From Lachnospiraceae bacterium (GTDB taxonomy: Bacteria; Bacillota; Clostridia; Lachnospirales; Lachnospiraceae), in the NCBI GenBank assembly GCA_017437965.1, contig JAFRWN010000121.1, positions 10,836-74,835 on the forward strand: a stretch of 64,000 nt of DNA, written 5' to 3'. The position numbers were made by a program, and so were the translations under genes. Below, piece by piece: positions 19,455 to 35,184 of the stretch. Positions within the stretch are counted from its first letter, which is position 1. Every line of letters starts with the position of its first letter. Below the pieces are notes generated by a model. It saw only the letters and a list, made by a program, of their open reading frames with translations. It searched no databases and had not been told where the DNA came from.

Positions 19455-19513
19455 GAAAAATTGCCTCTCTTTCTTTATTTCTGCTCAAAAATGGTCCTAA
19501 AACACCATGCTTA

Positions 19514-19542
19514 ATGATACCACATTCCCAAAAAACTTTCAA
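19514..19542 (-). promoter_or_regulatory. promoter for aspS (extended -10)
   Basis: Minus strand has TTGAAA (19537-19542), a 17-nt spacer, then TGgTATCAT (19514-19522). Confidence 0.5.
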
Positions 19543-19553
19543 TATTTTTTATT

Positions 19554-19587
19554 TTCTGGTGCAATTTTGGTGCACCTGCCGTGATAC
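19554..19587 (+). promoter_or_regulatory. conserved motif, copy A (tandem GGTGCA 11-mers + CGTG); candidate promoter or operator
   Basis: TTCTGGTGCAATTTTGGTGCACCTGCCGTGATAC matches 36628-36662 at about 24 of 28 aligned core positions. Confidence 0.4.
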
Positions 19588-19620
19588 CGGAACGACTATA
19601 AGGATAGTCTGAACAAATTC

Positions 19621-19899
19621 TTGCCCGAGCCTGAGCAGGCCGTCAACCTCCCCTTCGATCTTAACACCCTGATAACAAGTGGGGAAAAGTATCATATCAA
19701 CGCCGATAACAAGGAAAAAGCAACCCTTGAAAACCTGAAGGATGTCCCCCTTGAAGGAAGCAGCATGGCAAACAGCTTATCCCACTTAGGTCTGGTGAAC
19801 ACTTTTGTTCAGAACGATATCAACGGGCACGCCAAAAGCTTTAACGATACTGCAAACGAAATTAAGAAGAACGTGGCACCGAAAGTAAAGGCAAAATAA
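19621..19899 (+). CDS. hypothetical protein (start uncertain: TTG at 19621 or ATG at 19765)
   Basis: ORF track only. There is no convincing SD at the TTG. The internal ATG has GAAGGA upstream. A hairpin CTGGGGGTTAACCCTCAG plus T-rich run follows at about 19926-19956. Confidence 0.3.
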   Translation: MPEPEQAVNLPFDLNTLITSGEKYHINADNKEKATLENLKDVPLEGSSMANSLSHLGLVNTFVQNDINGHAKSFNDTANEIKKNVAPKVKAK

Positions 19900-19952
19900 T
19901 CAAAGCAGATGATAAAAAAACAAGACTGGGGGTTAACCCTCAGCCTTAGTTG

Positions 19953-19983
19953 TTTTGTGACACGGGGACGTATCCGGTGTCAC
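19953..19983. repeat. 31-nt repeat, copy R1 (TTTTGTGACAC-N13-GTGTCAC)
   Basis: TTTTGTGACACGGGGACGTATCCGGTGTCAC lies 4 nt 3' of the ABC ATPase stop. It matches 22556-22586 at 27 of 31 positions. Confidence 0.7.
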
Positions 19984-19987
19984 GCTG

Positions 19988-20623
19988 TTACAATGAACGG
20001 GAAGTAATCCTCCCGTGCTCCATTGTATATACCATGTCACACAGTATGCCGATATCTTCCTTCGAATGCGAGGCCATCAGTATGGTGCCTCCGTTCTTCT
20101 TATACTCCAGGAAAAATGTCCTCATCTCCTCAAGTCCTTCAACATCAAGCCCGTTAAACGGTTCGTCAAGAACCAGCAGCTTCGGGTTCTCCATTATCGC
20201 CTGCGCGATCCCCAGACGTTGCCTCATACCGAGCGAATATTTTCTGACGGATTTCTTCATATCGGGGTCAAGCCCGACCTTTCTCATGGCTTCCCTGATT
20301 TCATCCCGTCCTATCTTCGAATTGATGCCTGCAAGTATCTTCAGGTTTTTATAGCCGCTGTATGCCGGGATGAATCCGGGCGTTTCAATGATCAAGCCGA
20401 GAGATTCCGGAAAATCACAGTCCTTTCCGATATGTTTCCCGTCCACACGGACCTCTCCCTTATCCGGTCTGATAAAGCCGCAGATACATTTCATCAGCAT
20501 AGTCTTGCCGCTCCCGTTGCGTCCGACAAGACCGCTTATCTTTCCCTTCTCGAAATGTACGTTTATATCATCCAGTATGTGGTTTTTATTCAAGGTAAGG
20601 TCAAGACCTCTGACATTTATCAT
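19988..20623 (-). CDS. ABC transporter ATP-binding protein (LanF-like, single NBD)
   Basis: Walker A GRNGSGKT, signature YSLGMRQR, Walker B LLVLDEP. Confidence 0.9.
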   Translation of the reverse strand: MINVRGLDLTLNKNHILDDINVHFEKGKISGLVGRNGSGKTMLMKCICGFIRPDKGEVRVDGKHIGKDCDFPESLGLIIETPGFIPAYSGYKNLKILAGINSKIGRDEIREAMRKVGLDPDMKKSVRKYSLGMRQRLGIAQAIMENPKLLVLDEPFNGLDVEGLEEMRTFFLEYKKNGGTILMASHSKEDIGILCDMVYTMEHGRITSRSL

Positions 20624-21480
20624 AGATATGATTCCTTTTCTTCAAAGCCAGTTCTGTTTATCATTATCCCGCTTATCAGCAGGGCTACGGCCATTATCGT
20701 TCCAAAGTATGCATATGATTTCCAGATAGCATATACCGGTTTTCTGACTATTTCCTCAAAATGTACCCATATGACAAAGTGTGCAACCGGGAAACTCCAG
20801 CGAATACCGGACCCAACCGAGCAGGTGATGACACCCATGAGGAAAAACAGTACCGTAAAAAGCAGTCCGGCCTTCCTTTTTCCAAGCACGGTGAAGGCCA
20901 TCAAAAGCACCGAAACCATCATGAAGAACATCAGCAGGAGCGTGAACGAGAATAGCAGTGCGCCGGAAATGCTCAGCTGGTTATAAAGGTTTGAGGGCAG
21001 AAGCTGCAAAGCATAGGAACTCACTGCTTCGGGATGCCTTGAAAGGTAAGTCCTTGTGACAAAGCTCCACTCGTTGCCGAAATAGCAGTTCTTTACCGAC
21101 ATAATAAGCACTCCGCCGTATATCACCGCAATGAAGGTCAGCGACGCCATCAGTGAAAACAATACCTGTCCCCACATCCATGCAAACCTTCCGCTTCTTG
21201 ACACATAGAGCATCGAATTCGGTTCGACCGAAGGAAAATCACTCATCATCACCAGAAAGAAGCTGGGGATGATCAAGACAAGCAGCCTTGAATTGCACAG
21301 ATCTATCAGCGGCTCAAACACGTTCATCTTCATCCCCTCCGAAACCGAGCGACTGACCAGCGGATCGACCGCCAGCATTTTTACCACAGGAAAGATGAGA
21401 ACGAAAAGTAACATCCTCGCATTCAGCACCCACTTGGAATATTCGATTCCTGCAATTTTAAATATCTTTCTAAGATTCAC
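20620..21480 (-). CDS. ABC-2-type membrane protein (LanE/G-like permease)
   Basis: 286 aa and polytopic. 4-nt overlap with the ATPase gene and 11-nt overlap with the upstream permease. Confidence 0.65.
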   Translation of the reverse strand: MNLRKIFKIAGIEYSKWVLNARMLLFVLIFPVVKMLAVDPLVSRSVSEGMKMNVFEPLIDLCNSRLLVLIIPSFFLVMMSDFPSVEPNSMLYVSRSGRFAWMWGQVLFSLMASLTFIAVIYGGVLIMSVKNCYFGNEWSFVTRTYLSRHPEAVSSYALQLLPSNLYNQLSISGALLFSFTLLLMFFMMVSVLLMAFTVLGKRKAGLLFTVLFFLMGVITCSVGSGIRWSFPVAHFVIWVHFEEIVRKPVYAIWKSYAYFGTIMAVALLISGIMINRTGFEEKESYL

Positions 21481-22345
21481 AGGTATCCGCCTTTCCGAGA
21501 TTTATCAGCATATACACCAGATAGCTGAAAAGAAAAACGCCGACATTGCACCGGATAAGGCCCTTAATGTCAAGGTCTTGGTAAATAGTGCTCCCGAGCC
21601 TGTAATAACCGATGTTGACAAGCGTAATGTATGCCTTACTGCCGTTCATAGCCAGGTATACGATGAACCTCTCCCAAAGATGGCACAGCAGGAAAGGCAG
21701 GGATATCACGAAATATATGTTGATGGACAATGACGAGATCAGCAGAGCCGGAATGACTGCAAGAGCCCCGTAGGCAAAGTATCTGACAGCATTTACAAGC
21801 AGCACCGCAGCAATGCTGCCAGTCTTTACCGCCTTACAGTACCATGCAGGGGCAGTATACTCCAGCATCTCATAATAGCCTGCCTGATCCTGAACGCTGA
21901 AGCTTTGTATTCCTGGAAAAGAAAGGCAGATGACAAGTTCCGCAAGCAGGCTTCCGATAATAAGCATTATCCCCCCACAGATGACTGCCGAAAGATACGA
22001 AGCGGAAAAATAATTCTTTTTGCTGACGTGGGGCATGACATATCTCGTAAAGCGGTGCTTTAAATCTTCATTGAGCACCGGTACGAAAGCAAAGGCTGTC
22101 AGTACAGGGACAAACATCATAAGCCAAAGGCTGTCCTTTCCGGCAAGCATCTCCAAGGAATTATAGTTTATGTCATCATCCATTTTGCTCTTATCGATGA
22201 TCATGTCGATCATCGTGATGCTGTCACCGTTAATATCTAACTTGACCACTGCGGCAAGGAGCATCACGCAGACCGCCGCCGAACCCATCCAGAATTTCCA
22301 GTCGGTCAGTGTCCTTACAATATTTGTACGAAGAAGCTTAAACAT
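21470..22345 (-). CDS. ABC-2-type membrane protein (LanE/G-like permease)
   Basis: 291 aa and polytopic. AGGGGA RBS. Confidence 0.65.
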   Translation of the reverse strand: MFKLLRTNIVRTLTDWKFWMGSAAVCVMLLAAVVKLDINGDSITMIDMIIDKSKMDDDINYNSLEMLAGKDSLWLMMFVPVLTAFAFVPVLNEDLKHRFTRYVMPHVSKKNYFSASYLSAVICGGIMLIIGSLLAELVICLSFPGIQSFSVQDQAGYYEMLEYTAPAWYCKAVKTGSIAAVLLVNAVRYFAYGALAVIPALLISSLSINIYFVISLPFLLCHLWERFIVYLAMNGSKAYITLVNIGYYRLGSTIYQDLDIKGLIRCNVGVFLFSYLVYMLINLGKADTCES

Positions 22346-22555
22346 TTATATCCCCTGAAGCCCTCTTATATCTGAAATTTGCACCATCTTTTCCCGACAA
22401 AATGTACCGCATTGTCGTCAAACTTATCAAGCTGTTCCTTGCTGTTTTTTCTTGGATAGCAGCTGCTGTAAAAACCATCTCTCTATCCGGTTCTCTTCAA
22501 CAGTCTCCGAAACCAAAACAGCAATATCAGAAAAACTTACACTTTATTTCAAATT

Positions 22556-22586
22556 TTTTGTGACATTGGGACGTATCCAGTGTCAC
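22556..22586. repeat. 31-nt repeat, copy R2
   Basis: TTTTGTGACATTGGGACGTATCCAGTGTCAC lies about 25 nt 3' of the lipoprotein stop and about 210 nt 5' of the ABC operon start. Confidence 0.7.
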
Positions 22587-22611
22587 AATATCTCCTTTTG
22601 ATTCCACCTCA

Positions 22612-24012
22612 TCACTCCGGAATTTCCTTATAATAGTGAAAGTTTCCTCCGTCCTCCGCATTTACATAGCAGACATAGGTTATTCTGTCATTTTTATTAT
22701 ACAGCGACAGCTTCCATGAAGCCTTTGTTTCAAGACTTAAATCTTCTGGCATGGTTGATTTACCGTTTATGCTTTCAACAAAATACACCAGTTCAACTTT
22801 CCTGAGTTCGAATTCAACCGTCTGTGACATTTCCTTGCTAACAAGCTTTACCGCTTCTGCAGCGCTGATCATGTCGTAGCTTTCCTTTTCGTCAATATAT
22901 CTGAAGCTCACCGGAATATTATAAATGGAGTCCACCTCGAAGCTGTTTATCATGGAACCATAGCAAAAAATCTGATAACCAGAATCACCTTCAGTATAAC
23001 TGCTCGTACCGTTTATCCCGTCAAAGTCTATCCCCTTATATGTTGACGTACATATCATCTGAAGACCTTCCACGCCGTGAAGTTCATAAATGTTCACATA
23101 TTTTACCTTTAGGTCTGCACTTTTATTTTCAATGCATTCCAGAGAATTGATATAGCTTTCAAAAACGGCAACCGCATCCTTGACCTTTACGGTCTTGTCA
23201 AGCATATTTACTTCTTCTTCACTGTCAGCAGGCACCTCTTTCTTAAAGCCCCCAAAGTAACTCAACTGGTCATACGCTTCAAGCATATCCGGAAAATCAT
23301 CATTTTTGAAATGTCTTTTTGCAATAACGCCACGGTTAAAGCGGAACAGCCCGTTGCCCACAGGGCTCTGTGCCTCCATAAATACCTTATCATCACCCTT
23401 ATCCTGATAGATATACATAAAAACCTGTGTCTTATCATCAAAAACCTCATCTTTATAATCTTCAACCAGCGGAATTACAGGTTTTACCAGATTTTTTTCT
23501 TTTATTAGTTCTTCTATCCGCTTTGTAGCTTCTTCTCCTCTGAGTCCTTCTTCATTCCATACATACATTCTTACTTTCTCAGTTTCCTCGCTATACGCAA
23601 GAGAGATTGCATCATATTTTTCCCCCGAAAACATCGTGTACTCAGGCTTGAACTCAACATCCGGGAAGATTTCCGAAAAGCATTTAACGAAATTGTCATA
23701 AGCGTCTTTATTATTCAAAAATGAATGGTATCCGAGATCAAAGGACGGAAGCCCATCAAGTTCTTCCGGCACAGAGACCGTAAATTCCTCCCCGGGTATG
23801 ATATTGGCTACGGTATTTACAGCTTCCATTATGCTTTCTGCGTCCGAAGCAACAATGGATTTTGTAATTTTTTCGTTATTCTTTATTTCTTTTTCTGAGC
23901 TGCTTAGCATATTTTCACTTTCAAAACCGCTGTCGTTTTTTGAACATGATACAATAAAAACACTGGTAACCAAAACAAAGAAAACTGCAATTTTCTTAAA
24001 TATTCTCATCAT
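22612..24012 (-). CDS. hypothetical lipoprotein
   Basis: Start moved to MMRIFKKIAVFFVLVTSVFIVSC (lipobox), with GGAGA 6 nt upstream. I recognise no domain. Confidence 0.6.
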   Translation of the reverse strand: MMRIFKKIAVFFVLVTSVFIVSCSKNDSGFESENMLSSSEKEIKNNEKITKSIVASDAESIMEAVNTVANIIPGEEFTVSVPEELDGLPSFDLGYHSFLNNKDAYDNFVKCFSEIFPDVEFKPEYTMFSGEKYDAISLAYSEETEKVRMYVWNEEGLRGEEATKRIEELIKEKNLVKPVIPLVEDYKDEVFDDKTQVFMYIYQDKGDDKVFMEAQSPVGNGLFRFNRGVIAKRHFKNDDFPDMLEAYDQLSYFGGFKKEVPADSEEEVNMLDKTVKVKDAVAVFESYINSLECIENKSADLKVKYVNIYELHGVEGLQMICTSTYKGIDFDGINGTSSYTEGDSGYQIFCYGSMINSFEVDSIYNIPVSFRYIDEKESYDMISAAEAVKLVSKEMSQTVEFELRKVELVYFVESINGKSTMPEDLSLETKASWKLSLYNKNDRITYVCYVNAEDGGNFHYYKEIPE

Positions 24013-24041
24013 TATGTTTCTCCGTTTTATTCTTAAATATT

Positions 24042-24068
24042 GGGCAGAGATAAAAAATATCTCCGCCC
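24042..24068 (-). other. intercistronic stem-loop
   Basis: Minus strand reads GGGCGGAGATA-TTTTT-TATCTCTGCCC, between the small secreted gene and the lipoprotein gene. There is no clear U-tract. Confidence 0.4.
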
Positions 24069-24102
24069 ACATAAAAAATGTCGAGTAACAATCGCAACAT
24101 GA

Positions 24103-24552
24103 TCAAGGTGTCGATACTATTGTTCCGCTAACAATAGCAGTATTACCGGTCGTACTGGTATATCCTGAAAAATGAAAATCCTGATACTGTGTAATACCGC
24201 TGTAAACAGGTTTGCATTCTACCGAATCGGTATAAACATAGTTATAGTATCCAAGATATTTAACAGACATAGTACCATTATTACTCGTAATAAGAGCCCT
24301 GTAATTTCCGCCCGATACCGTAATCGAGTGACTTGTCATGTATCCCATCGCACCATTTGTAGAATATGCAATTTTTTTATTGGTACTTACATTGGAGCCT
24401 TAAGGTGCACCAGGAACATTTACATATGTCACAGACCATGTTGCACTTGTTGGATAATCCATCATTGCTGCATTTGCAGTTTGAATTCCTACATCTGCAA
24501 GAGCTATAATAGCTGCAAGCAGAATTGCCGTAATCTTTTTTATCGTATTCAT
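24103..24552 (-). pseudogene. small secreted S/T/Y/G-rich protein interrupted by an in-frame TAA
   Basis: ATG at 24552 (GGAG RBS) encodes MNTIKKITAILLAAIIALADVGIQTANA|AMMDYPTSATWSVTYVNVPGAP. A TAA at 24400-24402 follows, and the same frame continues into the 81-aa track ORF (24103-24348). Confidence 0.55.
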
Positions 24553-24626
24553 AGATACTCCATTTCTATAAGCCTTTTGCTTATTTGTAACTTCTATTTT
24601 CAGAACACTACTATAACCGTCAGTAA

Positions 24627-25481
24627 TTAACTCGACTTTATTACTGGCAATTTTTCAACCTGTACCTTTTCACTGGAATATATTTCTTCGAGTTTATATC
24701 TCCAGTGATAAACAACTGGCTCTTCGTTGACTTCCTCAAAGTATTTATAGATGCGCGAAACCAGTTCTTCTTTGGTTTTAACTCGTATGCCTTTTAAAGA
24801 TTGACGAGTCAGCTTGCTGAAGAAACCTTCAACAAGATTCAGCCATGAACCATGCTTGGGTGTGAACACAAATTCAAACCTATCCGGTACTGTAGCAAGA
24901 TATTTTCTTGTTTCATCGGATGTATGAACCTTTAAATTATCAAGTACCAAGCGGATTTTATCACCTTTGGGATATTTTGAGTCAAGCAGCTTAAGGAAAT
25001 CTATGTAATCCTTACTGGTATGAGAATCTCTAACCAATGGTATTGCTTCTCCCGTTTGCAAATCAATTCCGGCAAGGAGAGATATTGTACCAAGTCGTTT
25101 GTACTCATAATCACGACTGATAGTCTTGTGCCTTTCATCAGGAAGAAGATCATCAGATGTTGTTGCAACTGCCTGTATTCCGGGTTTTTCATCATACGAG
25201 ATTGCATGTATGTTCTCACTGTCAGCACAGATGCCGATGTAGTTACCTTTCTCATCGAATTGTAACGAAAGCTGCTTATAAACCAAAAGAACATTATGCA
25301 TCTTCTGATCGAAATCAGGGTCGCGGTTTTCGCAGTAGTATGTTATCTTGTTGGGCTTGATATCTGCCTCTTCAAGAATAGTGTGTACCTTTGACTGACT
25401 TATAGTGGAAAGTCTTATATGACCGGCTTCTTCTGCAAGTATGATAGTGCCGGATTTTTTACCCATGATATGTACCTCCAT
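24627..25481 (-). mobile_element. IS630-family DDE transposase gene, apparently 5'-truncated
   Basis: DDE_3-like core (ISYDEKPGIQA..., VLDNLKVHTS, TPKHGSWLNLVEGFFSKL). It lacks the usual ~80-100 aa N-terminal HTH region. I found no terminal inverted repeats. Confidence 0.7.
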
Positions 25482-25672
25482 ATCCTTATATGTAGGTTAT
25501 ATCATAGATTTGACAAATAGTCTAGTCATTTAAAAACATTTATACTACGAGAACTCATTATCTTATCATTGGATCGTACCTCGCTTTCTATATATTTGCC
25601 CAGGAAATCTTTTTTCATTTCTGAATTTTAAGCATTTCCTTCAGCTTCTCAGGTTTTTCAGGCTGATTCGTT

Positions 25673-25828
25673 TCAGAACCTTTTCTGCTGTTGTTTCAGC
25701 AGCTTTTCCAGCTCCTTGGGTTCAGCAGGCTGATAATAGCCATTTTTCGACGGACTCTTTGCTGTAGTCAATGCAGATTTTTTTGCAGCATTAACTCCCA
25801 AATTTGCTAAAATCTTCTTTAACCTCAT
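25673..25828 (-). CDS. agrD: AgrD-like autoinducing-peptide precursor (51 aa, no cysteine)
   Basis: Not in the ORF track (<60 aa). ATG at 25828 has AAAGGAGG 9 nt upstream. Sequence: MRLKKILANLGVNAAKKSALTTAKSPSKNGYYQPAEPKELEKLLKQQQKRF. It overlaps the agrB 3' end out of frame. The QPxEPKEL tail resembles the conserved AgrD C-terminal region. Confidence 0.6.
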   Translation of the reverse strand: MRLKKILANLGVNAAKKSALTTAKSPSKNGYYQPAEPKELEKLLKQQQKRF

Positions 25829-26513
25829 AACCTAATTCCTCCTTTATTTTTTCTTGTAACGTACCACCATAATCTTCTTTTGTCAACAGGTTTGGCACAA
25901 ACGGTCGTTTTTCCGTCACAAACGGCAAAAAAATATTTTTAATAAGACCTGCAACGAATGCTACATCATTTGATAACAAACTAAAAAGCATTATTATTGA
26001 AGCTTTGTTGGCTCCGTTTAGATACAGCATTTTAGCTATGGCTTCAATAGCAATCAATATAATAAAGCATTGCAGTTTTACTTTTTTTCTCGAAAAAACT
26101 TTTATCAACTTGTTCGGATTAATGATTGGTGCCGCCAACACAATCTCAACAGTCGTTATTATAAAGACAGCTATCTCTGCCGGTTTAATTATATTTCTAA
26201 CCGGCAGAGAAGCAAGCTTCAATACTGCAAATACATTTAGAAATATTAAGACATTACAACGTAAATATGTATTTGCATGATATCCTCCCATCCGACTTCT
26301 TATAATAGTGAAAGTAAAATAAAATACAAAGGCTCCCATTATATCTTTACACATTGTTCCTGATCCCAGAACAACCAAATAATTACATACAGATGAAATA
26401 ATGTTTTCATTTCCGTATTTTATTATCTCATAGTCATTTTTTTGTTCAGGTAAAATCTTTAAATACAAAACAGTCAATTTGTCAGCTATTTGTTCCATCG
26501 TCGGCATTTTCAT
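25791..26513 (-). CDS. agrB: AgrB-family accessory gene regulator peptidase
   Basis: Polytopic, with an AgrB hallmark RSRMGGYHANTYLRC. The start could instead be the second or third Met (GAGAGG RBS). Confidence 0.8.
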   Translation of the reverse strand: MKMPTMEQIADKLTVLYLKILPEQKNDYEIIKYGNENIISSVCNYLVVLGSGTMCKDIMGAFVFYFTFTIIRSRMGGYHANTYLRCNVLIFLNVFAVLKLASLPVRNIIKPAEIAVFIITTVEIVLAAPIINPNKLIKVFSRKKVKLQCFIILIAIEAIAKMLYLNGANKASIIMLFSLLSNDVAFVAGLIKNIFLPFVTEKRPFVPNLLTKEDYGGTLQEKIKEELGYEVKEDFSKFGS

Positions 26514-26524
26514 TTTCCTCTCAC

Positions 26525-26559
26525 ATCAAAAAAACTGTGTACACTTCTGCACACAGTTT
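26525..26559 (-). terminator. rho-independent terminator between the agr kinase and agrB
   Basis: Minus strand reads AAACTGTGTGCAGAAGTGTACACAGTTT followed by TTTTT. Confidence 0.6.
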
Positions 26560-26575
26560 ACAAATAATTTGCCAT

Positions 26576-27934
26576 TCAGTCAACAGGTTTGGCACAAACG
26601 GTCGGGTTTCCGTCATAAACGGTGGAAAGCGGTATGATTATCTCACTTGTAAAGCAATCATTTTCCTCAAAATTACGATAAATACCGTTCATGTTTTTGA
26701 CGTGTTTTTTTATGGCTTTTAATCCAAAGCCGTGATTGGTCTTATCATCTTTATTGCTTTCCTCGCTTACCACATTTTTTGCAACACTTTCGCTGATTCC
26801 GTTTTTCACCCTTATATACAAAAAGGATTCTTCATTGTACAGATCCATTTCAATGTTGTTGGTTCCGTGTTTTTTCATTGCTTCTTCGGAATTCTGCAGA
26901 AGATTCACCAAAATCGATGCTATTACTCTTTCGGAAATACTTCCGAGGAATATTTTTTCAATTCTTAACGATACCACATAGTCATTTTCCTTGAAAATTG
27001 ACAGATAATGCATCAGCACGGCATTAATCAGTATATATCCACTGTCAATCAGATTCTCGTTTTTCAGGCTTTCCTCTGTTTCATTAATAACTTCATCCAG
27101 CTGTCTTTTTGCTTCATCCAGTTGTTTTTGTTTTAGCAGTTCCTGAATTGGAAGGAAAGAGTTTCTTATTTCATGCCTTAAAGACCTTAATTCTTTCTTT
27201 GACTCTTCAATTTCTGTCAAACGGGACATTTCATAATCGGTTTTGATAAGAAAAGAATTTAATTCATAATTTTCCTTTTCTTTATTGTACATATAAAGCA
27301 CAAATGATAATGAAATAAAAGAAAAGATCAAAAGAAGGATAATAAAGCAAAAAAAAAGAATTCTTCTGACAGTTTCATTTTCATTGCCGATGATGGCAAT
27401 TCCCAGATCGGAACACAAAGTAACAAAAAGCATTACCGTACCTTCAGGAACCCAGTTTTTAACGTGATATTTTTTTTCAAGTTTATGTACAGAAAGGAAA
27501 AACGCCAAAGAAAGCAGAAACTGAACAGTTTTTGCAAGAGAAAGAGAAAATACCCTTATATCAGAATCGTTCCGGATTATTGTTTCTGCTATTTCAGCCG
27601 ATGAAATCACCGGCATGAGCAGCATAGTAGCCAATGCAGACAGACTGATAGCCAGTTCAAGCAGCAGTACTTTAGACAGTTTTTCAAAATGTGGTCCTTT
27701 GAAAAAAAGCTCCGCCACAAACATATCCATCAGGATATATATTACCACATCAAAAGTTGTAAATGATTGTAAATGATCAAGAATACCAACGCAAGCAGAA
27801 TTAATACCCACACAAATTATTAACGCCATTAAGCGATATGGCAGCCCATGTTTTTTGGGTATAAGCATAATGCCAAGAAAACCATATTGTATAACTGCCT
27901 CTATGATCGTAGCAGATATTTCAAACGCACTCAT
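26576..27934 (-). CDS. AgrC-like membrane histidine kinase (GHKL)
   Basis: About 200-aa multi-TM sensor, H-box LRSLRHEIRNSF, N-box LVNLLQNSEEA, G-box NHGFGLKAI. The ATGA overlaps the regulator stop. Confidence 0.8.
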   Translation of the reverse strand: MSAFEISATIIEAVIQYGFLGIMLIPKKHGLPYRLMALIICVGINSACVGILDHLQSFTTFDVVIYILMDMFVAELFFKGPHFEKLSKVLLLELAISLSALATMLLMPVISSAEIAETIIRNDSDIRVFSLSLAKTVQFLLSLAFFLSVHKLEKKYHVKNWVPEGTVMLFVTLCSDLGIAIIGNENETVRRILFFCFIILLLIFSFISLSFVLYMYNKEKENYELNSFLIKTDYEMSRLTEIEESKKELRSLRHEIRNSFLPIQELLKQKQLDEAKRQLDEVINETEESLKNENLIDSGYILINAVLMHYLSIFKENDYVVSLRIEKIFLGSISERVIASILVNLLQNSEEAMKKHGTNNIEMDLYNEESFLYIRVKNGISESVAKNVVSEESNKDDKTNHGFGLKAIKKHVKNMNGIYRNFEENDCFTSEIIIPLSTVYDGNPTVCAKPVD

Positions 27935-28656
27935 AAACCTTTTCTCCTGATTTTTTCAATCATCTTTTTTTCTACTTCGTCGCGTCTTCGCCTGCTTATG
28001 GGAGCCTTAAGACCATATTTCATCAAAACATCTCCTCCCACAAAACCGGTAATATATCTGTAATTCACTAAAAATGCCTTATGCGTTTTTATAAAATCAT
28101 TTTTTAACATAAGCTCTTCATAGCTGGCAAGTGAATCTCTTACAGCTATTTCTCCTGCTTCATTTCCGTTATCATAGCGAAACAACAATTTATGACCAAG
28201 TACCTCAAGACATATCAGCTTATCAATGCCGATATATTTTTTTCCGTCTTTTGTCTTCACCTCTATGATTTGACTCTTTTTCCTGAAAGCCTCCAAGAGA
28301 TTATTGATCGCGCGCGGAAAATCGGTGTCCATTTTGGTTTTTCTGACAAATGCTATGGGTTTAATATCGAAAACATTATAGGCATATTCATCATAATCGG
28401 AAACAAATATTATTTCTGCCTTTTCATTGCTCTCCCTGATTTTTCTTGCAACTTCATCCCCATTGGTTCCCGGCATTTCAATATCCAAAAAATATACATC
28501 ATAGTTTTTTGCCGCATGGTTTTCAAGCAGAGAAACAGGATCACTGTACTTATCTATCGTATATGCCTCCGTTTCTCTGCCTGAAAATTCTTTTTTTATA
28601 TTTTGTTCCACTTTTTTGACGATATCTTCCATATCGTCACAGATACATATCTTCAT
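27931..28656 (-). CDS. LytTR-family response regulator (AgrA-like)
   Basis: Receiver domain (MKICICDD...FLDIEMPGTNG) plus a LytTR domain (IEVKTKDGKKYIGIDKLICLEV...IKTHKAFLVNYRYI). Confidence 0.88.
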   Translation of the reverse strand: MKICICDDMEDIVKKVEQNIKKEFSGRETEAYTIDKYSDPVSLLENHAAKNYDVYFLDIEMPGTNGDEVARKIRESNEKAEIIFVSDYDEYAYNVFDIKPIAFVRKTKMDTDFPRAINNLLEAFRKKSQIIEVKTKDGKKYIGIDKLICLEVLGHKLLFRYDNGNEAGEIAVRDSLASYEELMLKNDFIKTHKAFLVNYRYITGFVGGDVLMKYGLKAPISRRRRDEVEKKMIEKIRRKGL

Positions 28657-28660
28657 ATTT

Positions 28661-29971
28661 CTATTTTATCAAATACGATATTTCACTGATCTTCACCATC
28701 TCCTGGCTGCCCTCAGCCATGTTCTTAAGCATTACGGAGTCTGCCGCTGCCTCTTCCTCACCGATGATGGCAACGAATGGAATGCCGAGCTTATTGGCAT
28801 ATTTCATCTTGGGCTTCATGCCCTTGTCCTGATAGTAAACATCAACGGGCACGTCGGCTTCTCTTAGTACTCTTGCGGCCTCAAGCGCCTTACCCATATA
28901 TTCCCTGCCCATCGGTACAACAAGGCATTTTACCAAAGATCCGGTCTCGGATTTAATCACACCAACTTCCTTCAGCTGATAGAAAAGCCTTGTGAGGCCG
29001 ATCGATATACCGATGCCGGGAAGCTTCTTGGTTGTGTAGTACTCTGTCAGGTTATCATAGCGTCCGCCCGAGCATACGCTGCCCATGGACGGAAAATCAT
29101 TGAGCTGGGTTTCGAAAACGGTACCCGTATAGTAATCAAGACCTCTTGCGATCGTAAGGTCAAGTGTGAAGTTTTCATCCGGCACGCCGAAACCACGGAG
29201 GAAGCCTACAACCTGTGAAAGCTCGTCAACGCCGGACAAATAAAGCTCGTCATCAACACCGTTTGCTTTAAGAGCCTGAAGCATCTCATCGTTGCTGCCT
29301 TTAATGGAGATAAACGCAAGGATTTTCTCAATTGCTTCCGCGCTCACGCCAAGCTCTGTAAGCTCGGATTTTACATTTTCCTCGCCTATTTTTTCAAGCT
29401 TGTCGATTATACGGAGTATGTCGGCGATATTACCGCCATAGCCCAGGGCCTTAAAGAAACCGTTAAGAACCTTACGGTTGTTCATTCTGATGGTGAAACG
29501 GCCGAAATCAAGTTCCTTGAAGACATTGTAGATTACTGCAGGAATCTCTGCATCATAGATCAAATCCAGTTCCTCTGCGCCGATAACATCGATATCGCAC
29601 TGATAGAATTCTCTGAAACGACCCTTCTGGGGACGCTCGCCACGATAAACCTTTGCCATCTGATAACGCTTGAAAGGGAAGGTCAGCTCACCGAAGTGCT
29701 GTGATACATAACGTGCCAGCGGCACGGTAAGGTCGAAACGGAGGGCAAGGTCGTTGTCGCCCTTCATAAAACGATAAATCTGCTTTTCGGTCTCACCGCC
29801 TGCCTTTGCGAGCAGAACATCCGAAAGCTCGATTACAGGAGTGTCGATCGGCAGGAAGCCGAATTTTTCATAGACGCGGCGTATCGTGTCATACATTTTA
29901 TTGAAGGCTATCTGGTCTTCGGGAAGAAGCTCCATAAAGCCGGGTAAGATTCTTGGCTGTACTTTTTCCAT
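28661..29971 (-). CDS. hisS: histidine--tRNA ligase
   Basis: Class IIa motifs (RYVSQH, FKRYQMAKVYRGERPQKGRFREFYQCD, GGRYDNL) and a C-terminal anticodon-binding domain. Confidence 0.9.
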   Translation of the reverse strand: MEKVQPRILPGFMELLPEDQIAFNKMYDTIRRVYEKFGFLPIDTPVIELSDVLLAKAGGETEKQIYRFMKGDNDLALRFDLTVPLARYVSQHFGELTFPFKRYQMAKVYRGERPQKGRFREFYQCDIDVIGAEELDLIYDAEIPAVIYNVFKELDFGRFTIRMNNRKVLNGFFKALGYGGNIADILRIIDKLEKIGEENVKSELTELGVSAEAIEKILAFISIKGSNDEMLQALKANGVDDELYLSGVDELSQVVGFLRGFGVPDENFTLDLTIARGLDYYTGTVFETQLNDFPSMGSVCSGGRYDNLTEYYTTKKLPGIGISIGLTRLFYQLKEVGVIKSETGSLVKCLVVPMGREYMGKALEAARVLREADVPVDVYYQDKGMKPKMKYANKLGIPFVAIIGEEEAAADSVMLKNMAEGSQEMVKISEISYLIK

Positions 29972-29989
29972 GGTTGTTCTCTCTTTCTG

Positions 29990-30622
29990 TTATTTCATTA
30001 AAAATCTTTCATTAGCCTGAATAATAAATTTATTCACCGTCTCAAATTCTTCCGAATGGATGATATCGATCAGAAGAAGGAAAAGCCGGATATCATAGTT
30101 TCTGGCCTCAAGCGACATGATCACAAGTGCATTGTCGATCGTATAGGCCCGTCTGAACGGCCTCTCACTCACCAGTGAAACGAAGGTATCGCAGACATGA
30201 AGCACCTTGGCACCCATCGGGATATCGTCTCCCGAAAGCCTCTCGGGATAGCCCGTTCCGTCCTCGTTTTCATGGTGATAATAAATATATTTCAGAATAT
30301 TTTCGTTGTAGAGCCCGCTCTTTAACGCAAGGTCACGGCTCAGAACCGGGTGCATTCTCGAATACTTGATCTCATCGATGTCTAGCAGGCCTTCCTTACG
30401 GCCATAAAGGTAGGCCGAAAGCTGAAGCTTCCCGACATCATGGAGCATGGAAGCCTTTGCGATGTCGCTTACCTCGTCCTCAGGCATCTCAAGACGCTTT
30501 GCCATGATCTCAGTCAGCATCGCAACGATCATGCCATGGTCGAAAACCGCAGCAATGTCCTCTTTATATTCGGTCTCCTTGCCAATCTGTTGTATGAGGG
30601 TGATTTCCCTGCTCAGTTCCAT
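29990..30622 (-). CDS. HD-GYP domain phosphohydrolase
   Basis: MLHDVGK ... YYHHENEDGTGYPERL. Confidence 0.75.
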   Translation of the reverse strand: MELSREITLIQQIGKETEYKEDIAAVFDHGMIVAMLTEIMAKRLEMPEDEVSDIAKASMLHDVGKLQLSAYLYGRKEGLLDIDEIKYSRMHPVLSRDLALKSGLYNENILKYIYYHHENEDGTGYPERLSGDDIPMGAKVLHVCDTFVSLVSERPFRRAYTIDNALVIMSLEARNYDIRLFLLLIDIIHSEEFETVNKFIIQANERFLMK

Positions 30623-32169
30623 GCTGCAAACGCTTCTTTCTTCCGTTCGATCATCTCATCAACTCTGCTTATATAATCCGTCAAGCTCTTAACATTCTCT
30701 ACGCGTTCGATTCTTACTTCACTGCTTCCGTCCTCAAGAATCTTTTCCGGAAAAACATATTTCGTGGTCGCGCCGGCGCCGAGTGCAAGTATCGTCTGCT
30801 TTTCTTCCATTATCAGGATGTTGTAGAGGCCTTCCTTTCCTTCCCTTGCATAACCGATGTTTTCAAGGTTTTCCGCCATGTTTTTCTGACGGTAGAGGTA
30901 GTACGGATGATAGGCATTTTCAGACGCAAACTTCATTGCAAGCTCCGCTGCCTTCTCCACATCCTTCGCAGCCAGATCCTTATATCTGTCATTTTCAAGC
31001 TTAAGCCTTGCTGCACGTTTTATCGCAAGCGTATGCACTGTAAGGGATTCTGGATCCAGTTCCTTTACACATGAAAGCGTGTGTGCAACATCCTCCGGTG
31101 TTTCTCCGTGAAGCCCGATTATCATATCAAGATTTATATTCTCATGTCCCGCTGCCCTTGCCATCTTAAAGGCCTCATAAACCTGTTCCACCGTGTGCTT
31201 TCTTCCGATAAGCTCAAGGGTTTTCTGATTCATGGACTGGGGATTTATCGAAATCCTGTTGACTCCGTACTCCTTCAGAATCCTGAGTTTTTCAGGATTC
31301 AGGCTGTCCGGCCTTCCGGCTTCAACGCAGAATTCAAGCGTGCTTTCCACCGGGAAATATTTATGGACGGCTGTAAGGAGTCTCACAAGTCCTGCTTCCG
31401 AAAGCGCAGTCGGTGTTCCTCCGCCGATATATATGGTATTTAAATTTTTCTTTTTGCTTCCGTTTTCACCCGAAAATGCAGTGGACGCATATGCCATCTC
31501 GCGTTCAAGCGAAGTAAGATAATCGTCCATCAGATATCCGAATCTTTCAACCGGATATGAGGTAAACGAACAGTAAAGGCAGGTTGTCGGGCAGAAAGGA
31601 ATGCCGATATAAAGACTATAGCCGTTACGGTAATCAAAACCACGAAGGATATCAAGCTCACGTTTAGCGATGTCAACCGCAATCTCTGCTCTCTCAGATG
31701 AAACATATAGTTCCTTTTCAAAGCGCGCTTTTATCTCATCTTCGCTTTTTCCTCTCTCAAGTGCCTCATAGGCATGCTTGGTCGGCCTGATACCTATCAT
31801 CACTCCCCACGGAAGCGTCTTTCCGGTAAGCTGTGAAAGCATATCATATATGAGCCTTCCTGCCGCATAGCGGTATTCGGCAATATCTTCGGGCATTTCT
31901 TCCGAAGAGCCCTCAATCAGCAGTGCTTTTGTACTTCCCCCCACTTTTGCTGCAATTTTGCAACAAACCGCCTTTTCCGAAAAGCCGCATCTGACACTTA
32001 GCTCCCCCGAAACTATTTGAGCCTCACCATAGTTTATCTCATCGTTGTCCACATAGGCATATTCATATTCGATATTTCCGAAAAAGGACTGGATAAGGGG
32101 TCTTATTGCCTGGGAAATGTCAATTCCCGAAATATATATTTTTACTTTTTTAGTATCTTGTATCATCAA
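30613..32169 (-). CDS. hemZ: radical-SAM coproporphyrinogen dehydrogenase-like protein (HemZ-like)
   Basis: CPTTCLYCSF radical-SAM cluster motif. The HemN/HemZ-like length and N-terminal extension fit. Confidence 0.75.
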   Translation of the reverse strand: MMIQDTKKVKIYISGIDISQAIRPLIQSFFGNIEYEYAYVDNDEINYGEAQIVSGELSVRCGFSEKAVCCKIAAKVGGSTKALLIEGSSEEMPEDIAEYRYAAGRLIYDMLSQLTGKTLPWGVMIGIRPTKHAYEALERGKSEDEIKARFEKELYVSSERAEIAVDIAKRELDILRGFDYRNGYSLYIGIPFCPTTCLYCSFTSYPVERFGYLMDDYLTSLEREMAYASTAFSGENGSKKKNLNTIYIGGGTPTALSEAGLVRLLTAVHKYFPVESTLEFCVEAGRPDSLNPEKLRILKEYGVNRISINPQSMNQKTLELIGRKHTVEQVYEAFKMARAAGHENINLDMIIGLHGETPEDVAHTLSCVKELDPESLTVHTLAIKRAARLKLENDRYKDLAAKDVEKAAELAMKFASENAYHPYYLYRQKNMAENLENIGYAREGKEGLYNILIMEEKQTILALGAGATTKYVFPEKILEDGSSEVRIERVENVKSLTDYISRVDEMIERKKEAFAAWN

Positions 32170-32882
32170 TCGGTTTTCTTCTTTCTGAAGAAAGGAAACT
32201 TTCTCTTTTTTATGTCACTCTCGTCAATATACTGGACGCTGTCGCGGAGAAGTTCCTTAAGGTATGGATTGTTCCTTCTTTCATAACCGATGTTTGTAGA
32301 AGGTCCGTGACCCGGAAAGACCTGAATATCGTCCGGAAGTGCAAAAAGCTTTTCAACAAGCGATTCGATCAATACCTTCGGCTCTCCGGTCGGAAGATCG
32401 GTACGTCCGATGGAATCCGCAAAAAGCGTATCTCCCGAAAAAACAATGCCATAAAGAGGAAAAAGGAAGCATATGCTTCCGACTGTATGGCCCGGCACCT
32501 CGAAAATCGTAATGAACATGCCTCCGGCCTCAATAACATCTCCGTCGGAAAGGGTTTTGTCGGGAGCCACTGTACATGCGCCCCAGGCCTGCGAACTGAC
32601 ATTGAGCACGGAATCTCCGAGAAGCTCAACCTCCTTCGCGCCGGCAAAAACTTCGACGTCCCATTCTTTCCTGAGCTCATTTACAGCACCGATATGGTCA
32701 AAATGGCCATGGGTAAGGAGTATTGCAACCGGCGTATAGCCTGAATCCGCAACCTCTTTCTTAATCTTTCCCGCCTCGGTGCCGGGGTCGATTACGACGC
32801 ACTCCATCGTCTCCGGATTTCCGACGATTCCGCAGTTTGTAAACATGTTTCCGACTGTAACTATTTTCAGAAAATAATCCAT
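32166..32882 (-). CDS. MBL-fold metallo-hydrolase
   Basis: LLTHGHFDHIGA motif. Start set at MDYFLKI (the alternative at 32906 would overlap relA by 20 nt). Confidence 0.8.
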   Translation of the reverse strand: MDYFLKIVTVGNMFTNCGIVGNPETMECVVIDPGTEAGKIKKEVADSGYTPVAILLTHGHFDHIGAVNELRKEWDVEVFAGAKEVELLGDSVLNVSSQAWGACTVAPDKTLSDGDVIEAGGMFITIFEVPGHTVGSICFLFPLYGIVFSGDTLFADSIGRTDLPTGEPKVLIESLVEKLFALPDDIQVFPGHGPSTNIGYERRNNPYLKELLRDSVQYIDESDIKKRKFPFFRKKKTD

Positions 32883-32886
32883 CTTG

Positions 32887-35184
32887 TCAACCTGTAGTTC
32901 TCTCAATTCCGATTACGTTCGGTACCTGCCTTAACTTCCTCATTATATCGTCAAGCTCGGCTGCGCCCTTGGTTTCAAAGCTGATGGTAAGCGTCGCAAC
33001 TCCGCTCTTTGCGGTATTCGCCGTTATGGAGCTGATGTTTACCGAGCTTTCGGAAAGCACCCTGGAAACCTCAAGAAGCAGTCCCTGCTTGTCATTTGCA
33101 TAGATACGCACCTCGGCATTATAGACCATGTTGTCAAGGCCTGCCGCATCCTTGTTCCAACTTGCCTCGATCAGTCTGATACGGTCGGTCTCCGGCATAT
33201 TGATCACGTTGACGCAGTCAGTCCTGTGTATCGTGATTCCGCGGCCGCGCGTCACATAGCCTACGATTTCATCGCCCGGCACAGGTGAACAGCATCTCGA
33301 AAAATGAACTGCCACGTCGTTTACGCCGTTAACGATGATCGCGCCCTGGTTCTTCTTGTCCTTATGGGCACTCGAAGTCTGGGGATTGGAATAATTCGAA
33401 AGCGCCTCTTCCACATCGGTCGGTGAAACGGGCTTACTCTTTCTCATGCTTTCCTGCAGCTTACCGACAACCTGGCCTTCCTTTAAGGATCCGTGGCCGA
33501 TACCCGCAAGCAGTGAATTCCAGTCCTTATAACCGTACCTCTGTACGCAGTTTTCCATATATTCGGGCTTAAGAAGCTCGCTAAGGTTTATGCTCTTTGC
33601 CTTACAGTAGCTTTGCAGGAATTCTCTTCCGCGTACTGCATTGTCTTCCTTGAGCTCCGTCTTAAACCACTGATTTATCTTGTTTTTCGCCTTGGAACTC
33701 TTTACGATCTTAAGCCAGTCGCGGCTCGGTCCCTTGGCGTTCTGCGAAGTCAGAATCTCGATTCTGTCGCCGTTCTTTATTACATATTCAATAGGCACAA
33801 GCTTTCCGTTTACCTTACCGCCCACCATGTGATTTCCGACTGCCGAATGTATCGCATAGGCAAAATCCACAAGGTTAGAGCCGTTCGGAAGCTGCTTTAC
33901 CTCTCCCGTCGGAGTGAAGGCATAGATGCTGTCGCTGAAAAGGTCAAGATCGCTCTTAAGCACGTTAAGGAATTCCTTGTTATCCGAGAAATCCCTCTGC
34001 CATTCAAGTATCTCACGAAGCCAGCTGAGCTTTTCTGCCTCGTTGGTGTCGGAATGCTTGCCGTCCTGGTTTTCCTTGTATTTCCAGTGCGCAGCGATAC
34101 CGTATTCAGCCGTTCTGTGCATTTCGTAAGTACGTATCTGCACTTCAAACGGAGTACCGCCGGGGCCGATCAGTGTCGTATGGAGCGACTGATACATATT
34201 GGGCTTCGGCATTGCGATATAGTCCTTGATGCGGCCCGGTATCGGTTTATACATTTCATGAAGGATTCCGAGCACACCGTAACAGTCCTTTACATCTTCT
34301 ACTATCACCCTGACAGCAAAAAGATCATATATCTGGTCAAGTGTCTTGTTCTGGTTGACCATCTTACGGTAGATTGAGAAGAAATGCTTCGCACGTCCCT
34401 CTATCTCGCCACGGATTCCCGCTTCCTCAAGCTTGCCCTTCATCTCTGTGACTATTCTTGAGGTAAAGGCCTCCCTTTCGAAACGTGTTGCGGAAATCTG
34501 CTCTGCAAGGTCCTTATATACATCCGGATGCAGATATTTGAGCGCAAGATCGTCCAGCTCGGTCTTTATCATGCTGATACCGAGACGTTCCGCAAGCGGT
34601 GAATATATTTCAAGTGTTTCCCTTGAAATCGAAATCTGCTTCTCGGGCTTCTGGTACTTCATCGTACGCATATTGTGAAGCCTGTCGGCAAGCTTTATGA
34701 TTATTACTCTGATGTCCTTTGCCATTGCAAGGAACATTTTACGGAGATTTTCAGCCTGTACCTCAACCTTGTCGGCGCTGTACTTGAGTTTTGTCAGCTT
34801 TGTAACGCCGTCAACAAGTAGAAGTACTTCCTCTCCGAACATGTTCTTCATTTCCTCGTCGGTAACCGAGGTATCCTCAAGAACATCGTGAAGGAGGCCT
34901 GCCATGATGGTTTCCTTGTCCATTTCAAGCTCGGCAAGTATGATTGCGACGTTCACAGGGTGATTGATATAGGGTTCACCCGAACGGCGCAGCTGTCCGC
35001 CATGTGATTTTTTTGCATAATCATAGGCAAGCTCTACACGTGAAACATCAGTCGAGGGATGATACTTCTTTATCACTTCGATAAGATGCTTCTTCATCTC
35101 GTCCGGTTCCATGAACTCGGGCATCAGTCCGATTACACCGTGCGGACTTCTTACTATACTTACGGTACCGTTTGTATCAGGCAT
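32887..35184 (-). CDS. relA: bifunctional (p)ppGpp synthetase/hydrolase
   Basis: 765 aa with an HD hydrolase (HPVNVA..LHDVLEDT), a synthetase (YRKMVN...SLHTTLIGP), and TGS and ACT regions. Confidence 0.95.
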   Translation of the reverse strand: MPDTNGTVSIVRSPHGVIGLMPEFMEPDEMKKHLIEVIKKYHPSTDVSRVELAYDYAKKSHGGQLRRSGEPYINHPVNVAIILAELEMDKETIMAGLLHDVLEDTSVTDEEMKNMFGEEVLLLVDGVTKLTKLKYSADKVEVQAENLRKMFLAMAKDIRVIIIKLADRLHNMRTMKYQKPEKQISISRETLEIYSPLAERLGISMIKTELDDLALKYLHPDVYKDLAEQISATRFEREAFTSRIVTEMKGKLEEAGIRGEIEGRAKHFFSIYRKMVNQNKTLDQIYDLFAVRVIVEDVKDCYGVLGILHEMYKPIPGRIKDYIAMPKPNMYQSLHTTLIGPGGTPFEVQIRTYEMHRTAEYGIAAHWKYKENQDGKHSDTNEAEKLSWLREILEWQRDFSDNKEFLNVLKSDLDLFSDSIYAFTPTGEVKQLPNGSNLVDFAYAIHSAVGNHMVGGKVNGKLVPIEYVIKNGDRIEILTSQNAKGPSRDWLKIVKSSKAKNKINQWFKTELKEDNAVRGREFLQSYCKAKSINLSELLKPEYMENCVQRYGYKDWNSLLAGIGHGSLKEGQVVGKLQESMRKSKPVSPTDVEEALSNYSNPQTSSAHKDKKNQGAIIVNGVNDVAVHFSRCCSPVPGDEIVGYVTRGRGITIHRTDCVNVINMPETDRIRLIEASWNKDAAGLDNMVYNAEVRIYANDKQGLLLEVSRVLSESSVNISSITANTAKSGVATLTISFETKGAAELDDIMRKLRQVPNVIGIERTTG

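Follow-up and report, generated by a model that had tools for sequence, protein, structure and literature searches.

A 64,000-nt stretch of contig JAFRWN010000121.1 from a Lachnospiraceae bacterium (hereafter the window) carries four linked genes that we read as an agr-type peptide quorum-sensing circuit of an uncultured ruminant-gut Clostridia bacterium, a functional reading to which we assign a probability of roughly two in three. The genes encode a response regulator (RR), an AgrC-like histidine kinase (HK), the peptidase/cyclase AgrB and a Cys-free AgrD precursor of 51 residues, and all agr features lie on the minus strand in the order RR-HK-terminator-agrB-agrD (Table 1). An earlier interpretation of the window made from its letters and open reading frames (ORFs), here called the sequence-only reading, had proposed this locus and gene order, and both are borne out by Pfam and NCBIfam matches. 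From the sequence comparisons described below we conclude that the 51-codon ORF is a real, divergent AgrD with a Ser at the predicted ring position. In addition, the locus contains two copies of a predicted LytTR-box promoter, one ahead of agrB and one ahead of agrD, a duplication that was absent from the sequence-only reading.

The agrD ORF begins 38 nt inside the agrB ORF in a different frame, and its ribosome binding site (RBS; AAAGGAGG at 25845..25838) lies 9 nt 5' of the ATG; the coordinates, the exact translation and the overlap of a Cys-free AgrD with the agrB 3' end are all as the sequence-only reading had them. Like other AgrDs, the product is a small precursor (about 40-55 aa) encoded in an agrB locus, and it can be divided into a leader that is basic and amphipathic (residues 1-26), the five residues of the predicted ring (S27-K-N-G-Y31) and a follower (Y32-QPAEPKELEKLLKQQQKRF). 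The basic, weakly hydrophobic character of the leader falls inside the range of other Lachnospiraceae- and Ruminococcus-type AgrDs.

Two profile models place this ORF with the AgrDs. On TIGR04223, the NCBIfam model of AgrD family cyclic lactone autoinducer peptides (curated cutoff, 19 bits), the score rose from 16.4 to 21.5 bits when Ser27 was replaced by Cys in silico (S27C), indicating that the model puts Ser27 in its Cys column and upholding the proposal that Ser occupies the ring-forming position. Cys-free orthologues exceed the cutoff as they stand (P0010, 21.6 bits; L079, 25.8 bits), and Cys-type AgrD controls scored 27-53 bits. Our own hidden Markov model (HMM) was built from 53 AgrDs encoded beside AgrB genes, taken from 65 clostridial genome loci. 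Over 4,567 small ORFs, this HMM ranked the window ORF (E 0.046, 11.8 bits; 20.7 bits with S27C) immediately after those AgrDs that a first-round model had already recovered and identified it as the sole AgrD-like small ORF in the window, where the next ORF had an E of 4.3, so that the profile search suggested by the sequence-only reading puts the ORF first among those of the window. The spacing around Ser27, which stands 5 residues ahead of Y32-Q-P, is S27(0)-K-N-G-Y31|Y32(+5)-Q-P34(+7)-A-E-P37 and is identical to the spacing that predominates in clostridial AgrDs, C(0)-xxxx|[HY](+5)-Q-P(+7). A nucleophile followed by a Pro-containing follower is therefore present, S27-KNGY|YQPAEPKEL aligning with C-xxxx|[HY]QPxxP in the 53 AgrDs, with Ser and not Cys as the nucleophile, and the follower motif [YH]QP.EP..L is common to 50 or more clostridial AgrDs. 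Among the 53, one is Cys-free (L048, from Ruminococcus sp.) and another has Ser at the ring position (L013).

Homologues of the ORF are few. When 1.84 billion representative proteins were searched exhaustively with phmmer, one was found, P0010 (45 aa, 60% identity, E 4e-9), and a scan of JGI metagenomes supplied a third allele, L079 (48 aa); a word-indexed protein search returned only the ORF itself, and Pfam contained no AgrD match for it, the only hit being a chance match to DUF7432 (E 0.19). The three alleles are all Cys-free and share the core P-S-K-[N/H/Y]-G-Y, in which Ser27, Lys28, Gly30 and Tyr31 are identical and one ring position is variable. Purifying selection is evident at the DNA level: P0010 exists as three DNA alleles with 5-8 synonymous and 0 non-synonymous differences (pS 0.18-0.28, pN 0), and agrD of strain L008, which lacks the insertion sequence (IS) found downstream in the window, has a single difference from the window that is synonymous in this frame. 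Gene calls on six public contigs from metagenomes also include the 51-aa ORF. We consider it highly improbable that the ORF encodes an unrelated small basic protein positioned after agrB, with the cognate AgrD elsewhere in the genome. The window ORF does score under the TIGR04223 cutoff and has no AgrD match in Pfam, and in Clostridium (Acetivibrio) thermocellum agrD can be unlinked from agrB (PMC5322536); nevertheless, its orthologues pass the same curated cutoff, its follower carries the motif of the clostridial AgrDs, it is always linked to an agr kinase under a LytTR box, and the 64 kb hold no other AgrD-like ORF.

Other candidate peptides were considered and rejected. Joining the ORF to the downstream relic of a second follower (Table 1) as one frameshifted 70-aa protein with two QPxxPxxL repeats was dismissed because the 51-aa frame is kept in the window, in the six metagenome contigs and in one further strain, and because the relic lacks a start codon. 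A 31-aa ORF (26616..26521), evaluated as a hidden AgrD, has no follower motif and no HMM signal, and in relatives this DNA lies between genes; Cys-containing frames present in a 44-nt repeat described below (..TVCAKPVD) were discarded on the same three grounds (motif, HMM and relatives).

If the precursor is processed as these alignments predict, AgrB (predicted catalytic residues His79/Cys86) would cut AgrD between Tyr31 and Tyr32, and the Ser27 hydroxyl would resolve the acyl-enzyme to form a five-residue lactone ring, S-K-N-G-Y, where a thiolactone is usual; were the leader removed right at Ser27, the ring could subsequently become all-amide through an O-to-N shift. Serine lactones made by AgrB-family enzymes are exemplified by the autoinducing peptide (AIP) of S. 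intermedius/pseudintermedius and by FsrD/GBAP of E. faecalis. Ser takes the place of Cys in AgrD "in rare cases" (PMC8251862), as the sequence-only reading had supposed, but its attribution of such peptides to a staphylococcal species was too narrow, since C. thermocellum AgrD forms an S25-F29 lactone ring before Y30...P35, as confirmed by liquid chromatography-tandem mass spectrometry (PMC5322536). It is unlikely, in our view, that AgrB only trims the follower to release a linear signal, or that the ring closes through another nucleophile, such as the Lys28 amine (yielding an isopeptide lactam) or Thr21/Thr22. The absence of Cys from AgrD, the hydrophilic and atypical ring residues, a Lys28 as invariant as Ser27 in the three alleles and the possible chemical capacity of an amine to resolve an acyl-enzyme would all accord with such a product, yet two independent AgrD models align Ser27 exactly with their Cys column, with S27C restoring 5-9 bits, Ser-lactone formation is documented for the enzyme family (PMC5322536, PMC8251862), and the linear pentapeptide of C. 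thermocellum is inactive (PMC5322536).

A more far-reaching possibility, which we regard as quite unlikely, is that the S-K-x-G-Y core represents a new AIP chemotype, a small hydrophilic cationic ring with a different kinase recognition, whether closed as a lactone, as a lysine isopeptide or, through the O-to-N shift, as a homodetic ring, and with the variable position (N, H, Y) as the determinant of strain specificity. To our knowledge, all studied AIPs depend on recognition of a hydrophobic tail. Were the signal indeed this hydrophilic ring, autoinducing peptides would span a wider chemical range than is known today; if not, the locus is a routine gain in annotation, a small gene that falls 2.6 bits short of detection by domain models.

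The three partner genes have the features expected of agr components. In AgrB, as in other members of its family, the His and Cys are 7 residues apart, and both are invariant in the AgrB alignment A1; we take H77/C84 to be the corresponding residues of S. aureus AgrB. The nearest AgrB homologues are proteins of about 201 aa with 46-47% identity from ruminant-gut metagenomes, and all relatives end near residue 200, leaving a 40-residue tail (residues ~200-240) that is specific to the window protein and is coded by read-through of box 2 and the agrD promoter. Similarly, the last ~16 codons of the kinase gene read into LytTR box 1, so that the AgrB tail and the 16-residue kinase extension both arise because the ORFs run into box DNA. 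An alternative AgrB start at 26507 would give a 238-aa form, the length of P0002. A single-sequence AgrB scan of GTDB genomes and a scan of JGI metagenomes gave no match, an alignment-based scan of GTDB genomes found AgrBs at no more than 35% identity and none closer, which places the species outside the set of representative genomes, and a PDB sequence search with AgrB produced only chance matches to GABA receptors.

The kinase has 7 hydrophobic segments within residues 6-210, consistent with seven transmembrane (TM) helices, and an H-box (RHEIRN) with His254; together with the HATPase_c_5 domain, the polytopic N-terminal sensor (6-7 TM) and H-box define an AgrC-type (HPK10) kinase. Its orthologues P0007 and P0008 (437 aa) are 48% identical to it; like the AgrB relatives, the closest kinases stem from ruminant-gut metagenomes, and the nearest kinase homologue has Lachnospiraceae as its source label. 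The kinase gene overlaps the RR gene by 4 nt, and the RR gene starts 4 nt past the hisS stop codon. On the NCBIfam AgrA equivalog NF046049 the RR scored 33 bits against a cutoff of 400, and it is therefore classed as a LytTR family regulator and not as an AgrA orthologue. As a separate observation, RNA contigs of two runs (X6 and X12) match only 18-nt pieces of the kinase gene (27258-27275 and 27576-27593) joined by unrelated letters and probably derive from a related kinase gene of another organism.

The two predicted LytTR boxes lie in a 44-nt direct repeat (D1; 26579-26622 and 25882-25925), the copies of which are 93% identical. On the coding strand the boxes follow the pattern CCGTTT(A/G)TG-N12-CCGTTTGTG, two 9-bp repeats with a 12-bp spacer, and each is followed after 9 nt by a TTGAC(T/A) -35 element, a 17-nt spacer and TAAACT or TACGTT. 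A scan of the window with this pattern found 2 exact sites where 0.05 were expected; a third, box-like site (60114-60143) with 3 mismatches lies inside coding sequence with no promoter after it, is probably a chance occurrence and was rejected. For LytTR regulators, paired 9-bp direct repeats that are 12 bp apart and lie about 4-11 bp ahead of the -35 element have been described (PMC6193735), and both predicted boxes have this architecture. The module is also conserved: in relatives whose proteins are only 46-48% identical to those of the window, it stands both 5' of agrB and 3' of the kinase gene. An alignment of six box regions shows no variation in the repeat cores, in TTGAC or in the TA...T of the -10 element. 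We infer that the regulator of the locus may activate two promoters of its own circuit, one for agrB and one for agrD.

The duplicated box promoter also accounts for two features that the sequence-only reading had pointed out, the agrB/agrD overlap and the position of a terminator between the kinase gene and agrB, which the terminator scan recovered as a 12-pair hairpin with a T-run. The 5' arm of this hairpin (from 26559) overlaps the -10 hexamer of the agrB promoter (26560..26555) and the predicted transcript start, and therefore read-through from the kinase gene would fold the terminator, whereas a transcript born at the promoter would lack the arm. A promoter scan found neither a promoter nor a box 5' of the RR gene, and the RR and kinase genes are probably expressed with hisS. 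In the circuit that we propose, the 7-TM kinase would sense the peptide and phosphorylate the LytTR regulator, which would bind both 9-bp/12-bp/9-bp boxes, one driving agrB and the other, inside the agrB 3' end, driving agrD and probably the secreted-protein, lipoprotein and ABC transporter genes downstream; the RR and kinase genes would be transcribed from the upstream hisS operon, with the terminator that overlaps the agrB promoter insulating agrB.

The gene order of the window is best read as a local rearrangement. The layout in relatives from ruminant-gut metagenomes (L074, L076, L077 and L001) is box-agrB-RR-HK-box-agrD, with no ORF between agrB and the RR gene in any of these loci. Cys-free agrD orthologues lie directly 3' of the kinase gene under the same box in L076 and L077, and agrB-RR-HK lies upstream in L074. 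Thus, in place of the Cys-containing AgrD that the sequence-only reading had named as the finding that would speak against its proposal, the relatives carry the Cys-free gene directly after the kinase gene. A metagenome-assembled genome of Ruminococcus (L045) has the order agrB-RR-HK-agrD with a Cys-type AgrD, agrD lies 5' of agrB in most of the 65 clostridial loci, and C. difficile agr2 is ordered agrACDB (PMC3754575), all of which indicates that the staphylococcal order is not the rule in Clostridia. The description of the order as non-canonical therefore stands relative to staphylococci, but regulator-first arrangements have precedent in C. difficile. By this comparison, RR-HK-agrB-agrD would have arisen from an ancestral box-agrB-RR-HK-box-agrD when agrB moved between the kinase gene and agrD and the box was duplicated. 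A 44-bp duplication of a promoter box can in this way rewire which agr genes are autoinduced.

Transcription of agrD is supported by RNA data. In four metatranscriptome runs belonging to three studies, assembled contigs extend over the window from ~20413 to 25914 (X6) or 26058 (X7), a range that includes agrD and the downstream genes, and the metatranscriptome contigs leave only traces over 26071-33000 (the 5' two-thirds of agrB, the kinase and RR genes, hisS and two more genes). One run bears the IS-free junction, with a loose end at 25558. The sharp coverage boundary argues against DNA carry-over and is what would be expected if agrD and the genes after it were driven from a promoter close to box 2.

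Several points count against a functional Ser-type agr circuit. The score of the window ORF on TIGR04223 (16.4 bits, residues 9-42) is under the cutoff of 19, and the peptide product and its chemistry are predictions. The predicted ring has a mean hydropathy of -2.3, whereas the rings of the 53 AgrDs average +2.1 and none falls under -1.1, and AIP rings normally end in hydrophobic residues. The agrD -10 element, TACGTT, is weak and under the threshold of the promoter scan. The RNA contigs are unstranded and assembled, and because one reaches 25914, ~60 nt upstream of the predicted agrD transcript start, and another spans 25842-26058, they do not map the transcript start. Finally, in L074 (4285-4517) the box and promoter after the kinase gene precede a lipoprotein-like ORF (MKKKLTLLLLLLISVLLVACGE...) and no agrD, the sequence departing from that of the agrD relatives right after the RBS; with a lipoprotein gene in place of agrD, the peptide gene appears dispensable in some strains.

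The lack of agrD in L074 would also be expected if the locus were a decaying remnant with a non-functional AgrD, in which the kinase and regulator answer something else or nothing, as would the rearranged order, the loss of Cys, the IS630 fragment and relic second tail downstream of the ORF, the in-frame stop in the downstream secreted-protein gene, and the AgrB and kinase ORFs that run into promoter DNA. Nevertheless, all four agr ORFs are intact and AgrB retains its catalytic His and Cys, three alleles of different sample origin retain Ser27 and the core, one group of alleles varies only at synonymous sites, the same ORF occurs without the IS in L008, and RNA contigs cover the ORF in four runs; decay is, in our judgment, very unlikely.

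Compared with S. aureus agrBDCA, the locus shares an AgrB with His...Cys 7 apart, the leader/core/follower organization of AgrD, a polytopic HPK10-type kinase, a LytTR regulator and paired direct repeats upstream of autoinduced promoters; it differs in its A-C-B-D order, in having at least three transcription units and Ser at the ring position, in the lack of an RNAIII-like divergent effector, in an RR that scores far under the AgrA equivalog cutoff (33 against 400 bits), and in RR and kinase genes that are apparently not autoinduced. The serine lactones of S. intermedius/pseudintermedius (AIP) and E. faecalis (GBAP) belong to Bacilli, have hydrophobic ring ends and, for GBAP, a 9-residue ring, and their loci are ordered agrBDCA and fsrABDC, respectively. 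Closest in AgrD geometry is Clo1313_2818 of C. thermocellum, with Ser at 0, the ring end at +4, Tyr at +5 and Pro at +10 (PMC5322536), although its gene is unlinked to agrB, agrC and agrA (PMC5322536), whereas the window has all four genes together and a hydrophilic ring. C. difficile agr2 likewise has its RR and kinase genes ahead of the peptide-production genes, but agrD comes before agrB there, the genes are proposed to share a single transcript, and the AgrD is of the Cys type (PMC3754575). Among the metagenomic loci, L045 and L074/L076/L077 resemble the window in that agrD is apart from agrB and after the kinase gene, and L076 and L077 further share the LytTR box and the Cys-free AgrD family; L045 differs in its Cys-type AgrD and promoter boxes, and the window differs from all four in that agrB stands between the kinase gene and agrD and the box is duplicated.

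Serine AgrDs and regulator-first orders are thus already known, and what is unusual here is the very hydrophilic cationic ring (S-K-N/H/Y-G-Y) and the predicted LytTR-box promoter that agrD has of its own. To the few serine-type AgrDs, among them a C. thermocellum peptide without a known AgrB or receptor, the locus adds a case with four linked genes. Agr-type signalling has hardly been studied in uncultured rumen Clostridia, for which the locus provides a specific predicted peptide (…SKNGY) and a defined regulator box.

Table 1. Features of the agr locus and its downstream region in window coordinates.
Feature	Coordinates	Strand	Basis or remark
Response regulator	28656..27931	minus	Pfam Response_reg, 50.8 bits; LytTR, 34.3 bits
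AgrC-like sensor histidine kinase, 452 aa	27934..26576	minus	Pfam HATPase_c_5, 51 bits (GHKL ATPase)
LytTR box 1 (predicted)	26593..26622	minus	CCGTTTATG-N12-CCGTTTGTG; in 3' end of kinase gene
Predicted agrB promoter	26555..26583	minus	TTGACT, 17 nt, TAAACT; promoter scan
Intrinsic terminator hairpin, 12 pairs and T-run	26559..26532	minus	Terminator scan; after kinase gene
AgrB peptidase/cyclase	26513..25791	minus	Pfam PF04647, 85 bits (cutoff 23)
LytTR box 2 (predicted)	25896..25925	minus	CCGTTTGTG-N12-CCGTTTGTG; in agrB 3' tail
Predicted agrD promoter	25858..25886	minus	TTGACA, 17 nt, TACGTT, TG directly upstream (extended -10); read from sequence
agrD, 51-aa precursor	25828..25673	minus	TIGR04223, own AgrD HMM, purifying selection, RNA contigs
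Relic of second AgrD follower peptide (NQPEKPEKLKEMLKIQK, then stop)	25668..25615	minus	Direct repeat D2; out of frame, no start codon
IS630-family transposase fragment, 284 aa	24627-25557	minus	~90 N-terminal model positions missing
Small secreted-protein gene, signal peptide MNTIKKITAILLAAIIALA...	24103-24552	minus	One in-frame stop after ...VNVPGAP
Lipoprotein (486 aa), two polytopic membrane proteins, ABC ATPase	19988-24072	minus	Covered by the same RNA contigs

Downstream of agrD, the non-coding relic lies 67 nt past the first tail and is 71% identical to the agrD tail in DNA; it matches the tail of the AgrD HMM at 8 bits and resembles the L079 tail, which suggests a past allele replacement. 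The IS630 fragment follows ...GATAAGATA, its point of insertion lying 115 nt past agrD. This insertion is strain-specific, since contig L008 and one RNA contig have an empty site and a different downstream gene. In L008 the same agrB tail, agrD and relic tail are followed by a small secreted-protein gene homologous to the post-agrD gene of L076. The secreted protein of the window is 34% identical to a 141-aa secreted protein encoded directly 3' of agrD in L079, and in L076 and L008 the gene after agrD encodes another small secreted protein; these small proteins may be outputs of quorum sensing.

Of the more distal genes, the two encoding polytopic membrane proteins had no family match. In L077 an ABC ATPase with a C-terminus similar to that of the window protein is encoded downstream of agrD, and in L002 one is encoded directly 5' of agrB, indicating that the transporter travels with the agr genes. 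Together, the agr and downstream genes form a block of about 8.7 kb between hisS and aspS (17661-29971, minus strand). Since hisS and aspS are adjacent in many Firmicutes, the block may be an inserted island. Elsewhere in the window, an FMN riboswitch (RF00050, 43403-43531, minus strand, 95 bits) was the sole Rfam match above its gathering score.

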